Origin: a virus
Taxonomy: Duplodnaviria > Heunggongvirae > Uroviricota > Caudoviricetes
Direction: 5' to 3' (one strand)
Length of the DNA: 56,117 nt
Virus record (IMG/VR): IMGVR_UViG_2671180349_000008
Below, piece after piece: positions 35,801 through 38,800 of this stretch (position 1 is the first letter of the stretch; every line of letters begins with the position of its first letter). The position numbers are program-made.

Positions 35801-38800
35801 TCTGACTGCCCTCGATGAAGGCGATTTAAAGCCTGATGTCGTTAAACGCTTTGAGGAAATGGTGGCGCAGGCGCAGCAGAGCGCGGAAGCGGCAGCGGAA
35901 AGCGAACAACAGGCGGGGCAACATGCTGAAGCAGCATCCCTGATAAAAGAGCAGGTTGGAACGCTGGCAGATAATGTTCAGCAGAATGCAGAAACTGTAG
36001 CAGCCAGCAAACAGCGCGTTGAACAGCTGGCCTCAGAAGTTGAGCTGAACGCCGGGCAGGTACAGGAGGGGGTGCAGAATGTTACTGATGCGGTAAAAAA
36101 GGCGCAGCAGGCAGCAAAGGATTCTGCTGACAGTGCCACAGATTCGAAAAACAGTGCTGACAATGCGGCACTGAGCGAACAGAACGCACAAAAACACGCG
36201 CAGAAAGCTGAACAACACGAGCAGCAGACTAACCAATATGCGCAGGATGCAGCAACGGCAGCAGAATCAGCAGAGAACGCCAAAGGCGAAATTGACAAAA
36301 TTCTGGAAGGTGGCTATCTCAAAATAAAAAACAACTTTCAGGAAATTGTTGATGCTGGCCCATCTGCACTGGCTCAGGCCCAATATAATTTACAGATTTC
36401 CGGGGTGAAAAATAAACGGGTAATAGCCACCCCTTATACATGGCCGTCCAGAGCTGACTATGAGCAAAGGGAGCATCTGGCACTCGCCGGAGCTTACGGA
36501 TTTGGTTACACGTTTGAAGACAAAAGCCAGGGGCGAATAAACCTTCATGAAGGTTACACTGGTTCCTGGTGGTCACAGTGGGTAAAGCCGGGGCGTTATT
36601 ACGTTACAACCAGTGATAAACAATATCTGACACCAGACGGGGGCACGTACGGAGTTGTTGATGCGCTGTGGCTTAACGGTAACGCATATAATGACGCTTC
36701 GCAGGTTCATAAAATACTGGCTTTTTACGATGCTGACGGATACCTGCACATAGGCAGACGCACAGGTCAGAGCAACGGGTCAATAAGCTGGCGCAAGCTG
36801 GCATCGCTCTCTGATGTCAGGGCCATGCTGTATTCATATATTTATAATAATTACAACAGAGAATGGCGTGACCCGGAGCTGGGAGGTTTAATTCTGGCGT
36901 CATACCAGGGAACCGCAGACGGCGACACAAATATAAAAGTATCCCGTGGTCAGACTTATCCCGGCTCACGACTTGCACCTGTGGCGATAGAATGCCAGTT
37001 CACTCCATCCGGTACGTATGCCGCAACTCCGCGATTCTACATTACCGGCTGCAAGAGCAAATCACTCCCCGGAACTTATATTTCATTGTCTGGCGCGCCT
37101 ACAACATACAGCGACCAGGCATTTGTTGCGTTATTCATGAGGATTGCATGATGCAGATAAAAGAAATCACCAGTCCCCGTTATACCGAATCCGGTGCGAT
37201 TGACTGCGATGTTCTGTTTGAGGGAATGGAAGCCCCTGTTCCCTACACTGCCACACCAGAAGACACGGCAACAACAGGTCAGCAAATCTGGCAGGAACTG
37301 CAAAGCGGCAAATGGGGTGAAATAACTCCGTTCACCGTCACGCCGGAACTTATCGCAGCGGCAAAAGATGCTAAAAAGCGGGAAATCGAGGTATGGCGCA
37401 CAGAACAGGAAGCGCAGCCGTTCACCTTTGAATGGAACGGCCACACCTGGAACGCTGGCCCCGACTCAATGACCCGTCTTTATCCTGTGGTAATGGCTGC
37501 AAAATCTGATACGGCACGAACCGCCCTTGCGTGGGGTGACGCCGATAATCAACAGGTGAAACTGTCAATGTCGGAACTGGAAGAACTGGCAGCAGCAATG
37601 GCGCAGGCGCAGGTCGATCGCAACGACGAGATTTATCAACGCCAGCGGGAGATGAAAGAGAGGTTGAGCAACCTGAATGATTTACGCTCAATCCGAGCGA
37701 TGGCGACCAGCAGTAATTAGCGGTCAATTCTGGGCTTTTTGGCTGCGCGCTCCCCGCCCAGAATTGCGCGTCAATTAGCCCAGAAAAAAACGCGAAGTTA
37801 CAATCAATTGGCCGCTTTGCTTACACGATGCTGAGTGCGCCTGCAGAGCTGGAACGGGAAAATATTATTGAAAGAACGCGTGCAGGATTGGCTGTGGCAA
37901 GGGCTAACGGCATGATAGGAGGACGCCGTTCAAAACTGACACCAGAGCAATGGGAGCAGGCCGGACGTTTATTAGCGCAAGGAGTCCCCCGCAAGCAGGT
38001 CGCATTGATCTACGATGTGGCTCTGTCAACTTTGTATAAAAAACACCCCGCCAAACGAACGTGCATAGAAAGTAACGCTCAAACCAATTGAATCGGTCGG
38101 CAACACAGATTGATTGTGCCCCAATAGCCACACTCAACCCACGATGTTTTTTTAGATAGTGGCGAATTGATTTAAAGGAGGTGAGATGAAATCAATTCGC
38201 TGTAAGACCTCCATTTTCCAACATCACAACCAAGTAACGCTGCTGCCCGCAAAATGATCTAACGTCCATACGACCAGGGTGTCACCTCTGGAAAGCATAC
38301 GGAGTACCTTTTTTAACCCAGGGCGCTCAGCCTTTTTGCCGCTCGCCTTGTCCTCAAAAATTAGCTCACATCCTGCGCTTTCAAGAGCGTTTCGTTGTAA
38401 AGCAGTGTTTTGTTCATTTGTTGATACGCGTACATAGCCTATTAGCATATTTTCTGCTCACTATCGTTATTTATAGCAAGCTGCGGATTTTAATTAACAA
38501 AAACCAGTATGTGTGGAAATCACAAAGTACATACCGTTTCCCAATGAGATTTAATTCACTATTGAGGAAATAGTTATGTTTGATTTCACAATAATGCTCC
38601 TCTCCATCCTTGGCGGGGTGCATTCGTTTCTGAATGGGGTTCGTGAAAAACGTTACGAAGCGTCATGCAGGCAATTGATGGCCGAGTGTATTGCTGCCGT
38701 ACTTGCAGGCTTTATAGGCATGTATTTCGCGGAATATAAGGGTATGGATGAAAGTCTTCAGAATTGCGTGACTATTATTTGCTGCATCAATAACAGGCTC

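Follow-up and report, generated by a model that had tools for sequence, protein, structure and literature searches.

In the inversion systems closest to the one considered here, a functional invertase of the Cin, Gin, Pin or Hin type is a single open reading frame (ORF) of ~185-195 amino acids, with a full Resolvase domain including the E-helix and with an HTH_7 domain, and an invertible segment is recognized by two inverted 26-bp crossover sites of the cix or gix type together with a recombinational enhancer. In P1-like phage-plasmids, the corresponding block, lydC-cin-Sv'-U'-U-S, is one of eight hypervariable regions (PMC9603915). Here, we analyze this block in a 56,117-nucleotide stretch of Caudoviricetes DNA (IMG/VR record IMGVR_UViG_2671180349_000008; the window, in what follows, means this whole stretch), which is a P1-like (Punavirus) plasmid prophage and in which two invertase fragments on opposite strands face each other downstream of a chimeric tail-fibre gene. 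Our reading, to which we assign a probability of roughly 0.8, is that the fibre switch of this prophage went through two successive and unrelated rearrangements, namely an exchange for a Mu-type block and, later, the insertion of a Mu-like phage followed by a deletion. In other words, the two fragments would have become neighbors by two separate routes, and the chimeric fibre gene would be a product of the second.

Neither fragment is a chance match and, judging by their sequences, the two are remnants of different genes. We aligned them with Cin of P1, Gin of Mu, PinE of e14 and the 'pin' product of Salmonella phage SJ46. Residues 1-61 of the N-terminal fragment are identical to Cin at every position (61/61), as compared with 51/61 for PinE, 45/61 for Gin and 36/61 for SJ46 Pin. 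The C-terminal fragment, on the other hand, matches SJ46 Pin at 93 of 95 positions, Gin at 66/95, PinE at 54/86 and Cin at 53/88. Since the one fragment is Cin-identical and the other SJ46-Pin-like, two source genes are indicated. An earlier note on this DNA had taken the fragments for a single invertase gene, split and deprived of its middle, and had proposed an alignment with Cin, Pin, Gin and Hin as a check. The alignment as run, with Cin, Gin, PinE and SJ46 Pin, contradicts that view (61/61 to Cin for the one fragment versus 93/95 to SJ46 Pin for the other), and the ~36 codons thought to be absent from the core are illusory, as the fragments stem from two genes. That said, the same note was right that a serine-invertase N-terminus lies on the minus strand from 38448 (tblastn, Pfam Resolvase), that the locus is a rearrangement scar, and that no intact invertase is encoded here: tblastn with Cin and the SJ46 invertase as queries found none elsewhere in the 56-kb window. 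What is present instead of one complete ORF is a 74-amino-acid ORF covering positions 2-80 of the Resolvase profile and, on the opposite strand, a 95-amino-acid remnant covering positions 110-144 plus HTH_7.

The minus-strand fragment is the 5' remnant of P1 cin and extends over 38214-38448, that is, over codons 1 to ~78. Its residues 1-69 are 92.8% identical to those of P1 Cin (tblastn, E=1.6e-38), and the 74-amino-acid ORF (38224-38448) matches positions 2-80 of the 145 in the Pfam Resolvase profile (E=1.6e-20). In a base-by-base alignment, the DNA from ~38264 to 38470 is 100% identical to P1; the cin-derived DNA below ~38264 is more diverged and reaches ~38214, and a 1-bp deletion at ~38240/38241 introduces the frameshift that closes the ORF. 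The fragment had been placed at 38448-38257 before; its start holds, but its other end does not, the cin DNA running on to ~38214 through this deletion. Within the identical stretch lies the recombinational enhancer of Cin, sis (38359-38430, mapped from the P1 annotation, L005 5645-5716), which is present in cis and, by its sequence, intact. Having neither an invertase nor a second crossover site to serve, it would now be an orphan.

The plus-strand fragment is the 3' remnant of an SJ46-type pin gene (37803-38091; 98.6% DNA identity to SJ46) and keeps codons 99-193 with the stop codon, preceded by a single base of codon 98: homology to SJ46 starts at 37803, the third position of that codon in pin. 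The earlier note was therefore correct in seeing an invertase C-terminus on the plus strand, up to 38091, but its start is at 37803/37804, at codon 98/99 of SJ46 pin, and not at a junction repeat. The remnant spans the end of the E-helix and the helix-turn-helix (HTH) domain (Resolvase profile positions 110-144; HTH_7, E=1.2e-15). Of the three substitutions that separate it from SJ46, two are non-synonymous (A to P, and R to M in GRIGGR), in agreement with relaxed constraint but in numbers too small to serve as proof. Inside it, an 87-amino-acid ORF begins with the ATG at 37828; upstream of this ORF no promoter-like site was found, and direct reading of 37810-37828 revealed no obvious Shine-Dalgarno sequence. 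No crossover site of the cix or gix type was found at the breakpoint (37790-37815), and AAACCNNGGTWT-type matches in the window are limited to the P1-type site cixR itself and to chance-level ones. As a separate observation, SJ46-type pin is cut by IS26 at two other positions (P0003 and P0017, in other E. coli and Shigella isolates), giving proteins whose tail, ...ALLQIVGGDKLIIPFC, is read from the IS26 end; these truncations indicate that SJ46-type pin has been disrupted repeatedly.

The DNA between the two fragments is of Mu type. Namely, window positions 37816-38213 align with Mu at ~80-88% DNA identity, starting inside gin, continuing through the mom promoter region and ending in the start of com, so that the 162 bp previously described as unrelated DNA are in fact the counterpart of the Mu gin-com intergenic region and com start. 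In particular, 38092-38185 (plus strand; alignment to Mu 35515-35787) corresponds to the gin-com intergenic region with a decayed mom promoter region, and 38186-38213 to the first 8-9 or so codons of com (MKSIRCK..., ATG at 38186, plus strand). The decay is read from the GATC sites that Mu has upstream of the mom promoter: within 38092-38135, CGATCGG and AGATCGAT have become CGGTCGG and AGATTGAT, in the window as well as in SJ46. A 12-bp inverted repeat (38162-38173 and 38189-38200), present in Mu too, brackets the ribosome-binding site and start codon of com. It is one of the short repeats with a CAATTG core that had been noted at the junctions, and the others are likewise inherited sequence with no visible part in the rearrangement: CAATTG at 37805 is pin codons 99-101, and CAATTG at 38087 is the pin stop, where Mu gin has CAATTA.

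At the far end of this Mu-type DNA, com codon ~8 is joined to the antisense of cin codon ~78 (38205-38215). This junction, which we call J3, is identical in SJ46 (NC_031129) and in the E. fergusonii plasmid pRHB23-C02_3, both of which have an intact 193-amino-acid pin on the plus strand followed by the same 74-amino-acid cin stump on the minus strand. As the same stump stands beside an intact pin in these relatives, J3 is best seen as an inherited scar of the SJ46 lineage. What is more, about eight PLSDB plasmids as well as SJ46 share window positions 37795-39300 at 96-98% (megablast), the hosts being E. fergusonii, Salmonella, E. coli and E. marmotae. By the shared derived com/cin junction, we place the window with the P1-like phage-plasmids of the SJ46 lineage. 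The SJ46 paper lists cin among the genes and does not remark on the stump (PMC5241659). A role for the stump in that lineage, as an enhancer donor kept for the new invertase, was considered but gained no support: SJ46 substitutions inside the enhancer are no rarer than those outside it. These relationships also bear on the suggestion that P1 cin had recombined with an incoming invertase gene. There are indeed two genes, one being P1 cin and the other incoming, but their stumps were not made by recombination between them, because the cin stump joins com DNA at a junction common to SJ46 relatives with a complete pin, and because the pin stump ends at the terminal nucleotide of a Mu-like phage.

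This phage end occupies 37721-37802 on the plus strand and terminates in ...GAAGTTACA. The join to pin (J2, 37802|37803) reads ...GTTACA|ATCAATTGG. In the window, in the chromosomal prophages of E. coli UMNF18 and STEC316, and in the SerU-LTIIb remnant, similarity halts at one and the same nucleotide, after ...CGCGAAGTTACA, and a scan of viral contigs with the last 23 bases yielded eight more loci. All in all, ...CCAGAAAAAAACGCGAAGTTACA precedes a different sequence in each of 10 contexts, and one fixed terminus before ten different flanks is the signature of a transposon end. The terminus is a precise ...CA-3' next to unrelated DNA, it is part of a terminal inverted repeat, and the complete elements that share it encode proteins of the MuA and MuB type. 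These features of terminus and flanks identify 37721-37802 as the right end (attR) of a Mu-like transposable phage, and J2 as the point at which that phage entered pin.

The complete elements show what kind of phage this is. In STEC316, the same end closes a 37.6-kb prophage (L019 7927-45549) that sits in agaF and carries genes for a repressor, a ner-like protein, a Mu transposase, a MuB-like ATPase, GemA, Mor and lysis proteins, along with structural genes for terminase, portal, head, sheath, tape measure, baseplate and fibre. In UMNF18, it closes a similar prophage, which lies inside the tail-fibre gene of another prophage (L020/L003); Mu-like phages sitting in other prophages are already mentioned in GenBank records. 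Both complete elements encode a protein with the Mu transposase C-terminal domain, an AAA ATPase, GemA and Mor. They are flanked by 4-bp direct repeats, CCCT in STEC316 and GATG in UMNF18, and, by analogy, the target duplication at the insertion in the window would be ATCA (37803-37806). Read inward, both ends follow TGT..GCG..TTCTGG(G/A)C, with the motif at position 18. At the right end, the motif is found at 18 and 40 in the plus and at 68 in the minus orientation, and, correspondingly, attR in the window has three copies of the TTCTGGGC repeat, at 37778-37785 and 37756-37763 in the same orientation and at 37728-37735 inverted; inverted repeats in attR were also detected independently. Within each element, the two ends carry one and the same G/A variant, UMNF18 having GGAC at all copies, which fits the repeats being putative transposase sites. 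The inverted repeat at 37725-37766 could also be taken for a terminator or an RNA hairpin in which UMNF18 has a compensatory change. This view was dropped, since the third copy and the left end of the element show the same variant change; terminator prediction gave none at 37725-37766.

Apart from its right-terminal part, we found no other Mu-like DNA, no left end (attL) and no transposition genes in the window. The phage had no DNA match to a named relative in the GenBank phage collection, and the transposase of its family is at most 50% identical to that of any phage there. A side observation concerns the partial SerU-LTIIb record (L006 3500-3610), where this Mu-like right end, its A-run shortened by 4 bases, comes right after 'stf2'; part of what is annotated as a lambdoid LT-IIb remnant would thus be derived from a Mu-like phage.

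The cassette to the left of attR has the same source. While window positions 31800-34644 are 94.8% identical to the P1-like plasmid pHN257-3, positions 34370-37802 match prophages in the chromosomes of E. coli UMNF18 and STEC316 at 85-93% identity (85% for the UMNF18 Mu-like prophage from 34370 on). The change occurs within the tail-fibre gene S (31948-34914, plus strand; 988 amino acids as called), which starts with the constant part of P1 and cixR, is P1-like in its variable part as far as ~34551 and has a 3' end of Mu-like-prophage type. The left crossover, J1, falls in conserved Collar-domain DNA at 34552-34568, the last P1-like informative site being 34551 and the first Mu-like one 34569, and its location inside the Collar-domain DNA of both fibre genes argues for a homologous crossover. 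The position is approximate, since 34640-34790 resembles neither comparator. This stretch near the end of S encodes a His/Gly-rich repeat (...HNHGVGENV...) to which none of the P1-like or available Mu-like sequences align, and the true donor of the fibre tip therefore appears to be unsampled. Downstream of S, all on the plus strand, follow the tail-fibre assembly gene tfa (34914-35489; Caudo_TAP, Pfam E=4.5e-32; 92.7% DNA identity to the STEC316 Mu-like prophage); stf, a second fibre gene with a lambda-Stf-type N-terminal domain (35535-37151; phage_tail_N, E=4.9e-50), which is found at the same place in the prophages of UMNF18 and STEC316; and the fibre-chaperone-like DUF4376 gene (37148-37720; E=8e-16), the last gene of the Mu-like prophage. 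Going by these matches, tfa, stf and the DUF4376 gene derive from a Mu-like prophage.

Taken together, these junctions suggest the following history. In an older event, common to the SJ46 relatives, a Mu-type block would have replaced the C segment of P1 together with the distal two thirds of cin. This block would have brought in an invertible fibre segment, an invertase gene of the gin/pin type, the region of the mom promoter and the first part of com. Of cin, codons 1 to ~78 would have been spared, as a stump that includes the enhancer and promoters and faces the new invertase gene. In the second event, confined to the lineage of the window, a Mu-like transposable phage of a different family would have inserted into pin at codon 98. 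With the genes of the inserted phage in the same orientation as S, its fibre gene and S would have formed direct repeats ~38 kb apart, and recombination between the Collar-domain DNA of S and that of the phage fibre gene would have removed what lay in between, namely the P1 fibre chaperone, what was left of the invertible segment, pin codons 1-97 and, from the phage itself, the left end and ~34 kb of DNA. What would remain are the last 3.2 kb of the phage (fibre tip, tfa, stf, DUF4376 and attR), abutting pin codons 99-193. The sequences themselves show the identities, where the junctions lie and what attR is; the order, insertion and then deletion, we infer, as we do the loss of function. Headful packaging sets a limit to genome size in P1, and a P1 plasmid with an additional 38 kb would exceed it; selection for a packageable genome would favor such a deletion.

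The consequence for the fibre switch can be stated as a prediction. The orphan crossover site cixR (33296-33321, plus strand) is identical to that of P1 at 26/26 positions and is the only cix-type site in the window; a search of the window with a degenerate core for a second crossover site gave nothing beyond chance. Homology to SJ46 in S ends exactly at 33321, the last base of this site. Of the two inverted 26-bp sites that define an invertible segment, only cixR is there, along with an enhancer that is complete by sequence. Lacking an invertase, and with one cixR and the enhancer left as orphans, the fibre locus is predicted to be locked, having a fixed chimeric S and a foreign chaperone and accessory fibre genes. 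One could go further and view the Mu-like jump and the fibre-gene recombination as the capture of a host-range module by 'transposition-primed' exchange, the insert having been trimmed to fibre tip, chaperone and accessory fibre in a still viable P1-like phage of fixed hybrid specificity, with the locked state selected and not a sign of decay; we regard this as possible, if rather doubtful.

The reliability of the sequence has to be considered next. The window is the entire 56,117-bp draft contig CYBW01000029.1 of assembly GCA_001283845.1, and its letters include zero N. The contig end falls within IS26, with the terminal inverted repeat at 56021-56034 followed by the transposase start (window 56021-56117); the break thus sits at a repeat, and IS26-associated cargo probably lies beyond it. 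Three sister contigs reproduce both J2 and J3, two of them (L027 and L028) being 100% identical to the window and the third (L022) 99.97% identical, with three single-nucleotide differences in 9.6 kb. In all, the J2/J3 sequence recurs in at least four assemblies besides that of the window, from three or more accession series and from different isolates. The earlier note had named misassembly as a possible source of both fragments, against which the recurrence of the same J2/J3 sequence in assemblies of other isolates speaks. The 30-mer across J2 had zero matches in public genome, viral and metagenome contig collections, and the join is seen only in isolate assemblies reached via exact-protein look-up. 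The chimeric S protein that spans J1 has an exact copy in one second assembly.

A number of observations nevertheless weigh against the history proposed above. Among assembled sequences, none was found to contain the left half of the proposed insertion, in which pin 5' would be linked to attL: a search with the N-terminal 99 amino acids of SJ46 Pin, and its 90% cluster, returned only full-length, contig-truncated and IS26-truncated versions. Only one phage end survives at pin. The closest Mu-like comparators are only 85-93% identical to the cassette, which means that the donor is not among them and that J1 is approximate. What is more, just two assemblies, both of one accession series, contain the S-to-tfa join, and all three sister contigs start at 34274-34514, just left of J1, indicating that the Collar-domain DNA there is repeated in those genomes. 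Finally, the structure would fit recombination with an already interrupted chromosomal copy just as well as direct transposition into the plasmid.

Some of these points lead to a different explanation, in which J1 is an assembly artefact: a full Mu-like prophage would sit in an otherwise complete S-U-U'-Sv'-pin region, and the assembler would have jumped through the Collar-domain repeat. One would then expect '...AAAATTAGCACATCA' (pin codon 98) to be joined to 'TGTGGGG...'. While the window is a whole draft contig that ends in IS26, the three sister assemblies break beside J1, and J1 itself lies within DNA common to both fibre genes, we still consider this explanation unlikely. Namely, the chimeric S was assembled identically in a second isolate, the near-identical shared stretch is only ~100 nucleotides and thus below a typical read-pair length, and there are no Ns in the window. 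The lack of an ORF joining pin 5' to attL among the homologues and cluster members argues weakly in the same direction. In addition, it is established that 38 kb more would exceed the headful size of P1, though persistence as a plasmid would be possible. Even if the explanation were true, pin would be interrupted and cin a stump, and neither invertase would be intact at the locus.

One can also argue that no transposition took place at the plasmid, the cassette having come from a chromosomal locus through double recombination or having been gained in one illegitimate event, with attR at the breakpoint for other reasons. The homologous left junction of the Mu-derived block would agree with this, as would the frequent exchange of fibre modules in this hypervariable region of P1-like plasmids (PMC9603915). 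Yet the right breakpoint coincides with the exact terminal nucleotide seen in 10 other contexts, for which the odds under random breakage are negligible; pin 3' runs seamlessly into the SJ46-lineage junction between the com and cin remnants, so that the interrupted pin is the plasmid's own; and a chromosomal intermediate would still need a Mu-like insertion in an identical pin. We therefore regard this route as quite improbable. As for a single invertase gene, broken for example by an inversion with an endpoint inside it, its ends left facing each other and ~36 central codons lost, the fragments are superficially complementary (Resolvase 2-80, and 110-144 plus HTH), but there is hardly any room for it: the N-terminal fragment has 61/61 identities to Cin and 36/61 to SJ46 Pin, as against 93/95 to SJ46 Pin and 53/88 to Cin for the C-terminal one, SJ46 relatives have the same cin stump next to a complete pin, and the intervening DNA is Mu gin-com sequence. 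Insertion of a Mu-like phage into pin, followed by deletion between the fibre genes, remains the reading that we prefer.

P1-like phage-plasmids spread resistance genes, and the locus illustrates two routes by which their cin-S-U region changes, namely a swap for a Mu-type inversion module and a hit by a Mu-like phage with subsequent homologous trimming. The lineage is predicted to lack tail-fibre phase variation and to carry a hybrid fibre. In annotation, the 74-amino-acid 'recombinase family protein' and the 87-amino-acid HTH ORF, here and in SJ46-type plasmids, are to be read as pseudogene stumps and not as a split or novel invertase. In addition, the ends of a poorly described family of E. 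coli Mu-like prophages are now defined.

How, then, does the locus compare with the systems described before? It is a fresh instance of known processes, resolved to the nucleotide, and not a new kind of system. Gene order near the scar is as in P1 (baseplate and tail genes, R, S, then lydC, lydA, lydB, hdf, darA, ddrA and ddrB), with lydC-lydA-lydB-hdf-darA as the syntenic flank, and the window shares with the Cin/C-segment system of P1 a cin start, promoter region and enhancer that are 100% identical over ~38264-38470, as well as a 26/26 cixR. Unlike in P1, cin is cut at about codon 78 and frameshifted, cixL and the C segment are gone, and no inversion is to be expected from the encoded parts. 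With SJ46 and pRHB23-C02_3, the window has in common an identical cin stump, com fragment and Mu-type spacer and a pin 3' end of 98.6% DNA identity; SJ46, however, has the full 193-amino-acid pin and a complete invertible S/U/U'/S' segment, whereas the window is without pin codons 1-97 and the invertible segment and has the end of a Mu-like phage in their place. The order and orientation of invertase, mom promoter region and com follow the G-segment region of Mu (S-U-U'-S'-gin-com-mom), of which the window keeps only the 3' third of the invertase and ~8 com codons, with mutated GATC sites and no mom gene. Finally, compared with the complete Mu-like prophages of STEC316 and UMNF18, window positions 34570-37802 correspond to the right-terminal 3.2 kb, including the 82-bp end and the terminal CA. 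Having one end and four genes, the window holds a fragment of such a phage and not a mobile element, and the family to which it belongs differs from Mu itself in its flanking repeats, which are 4 bp long in the two complete copies as opposed to the 5 bp of Mu.

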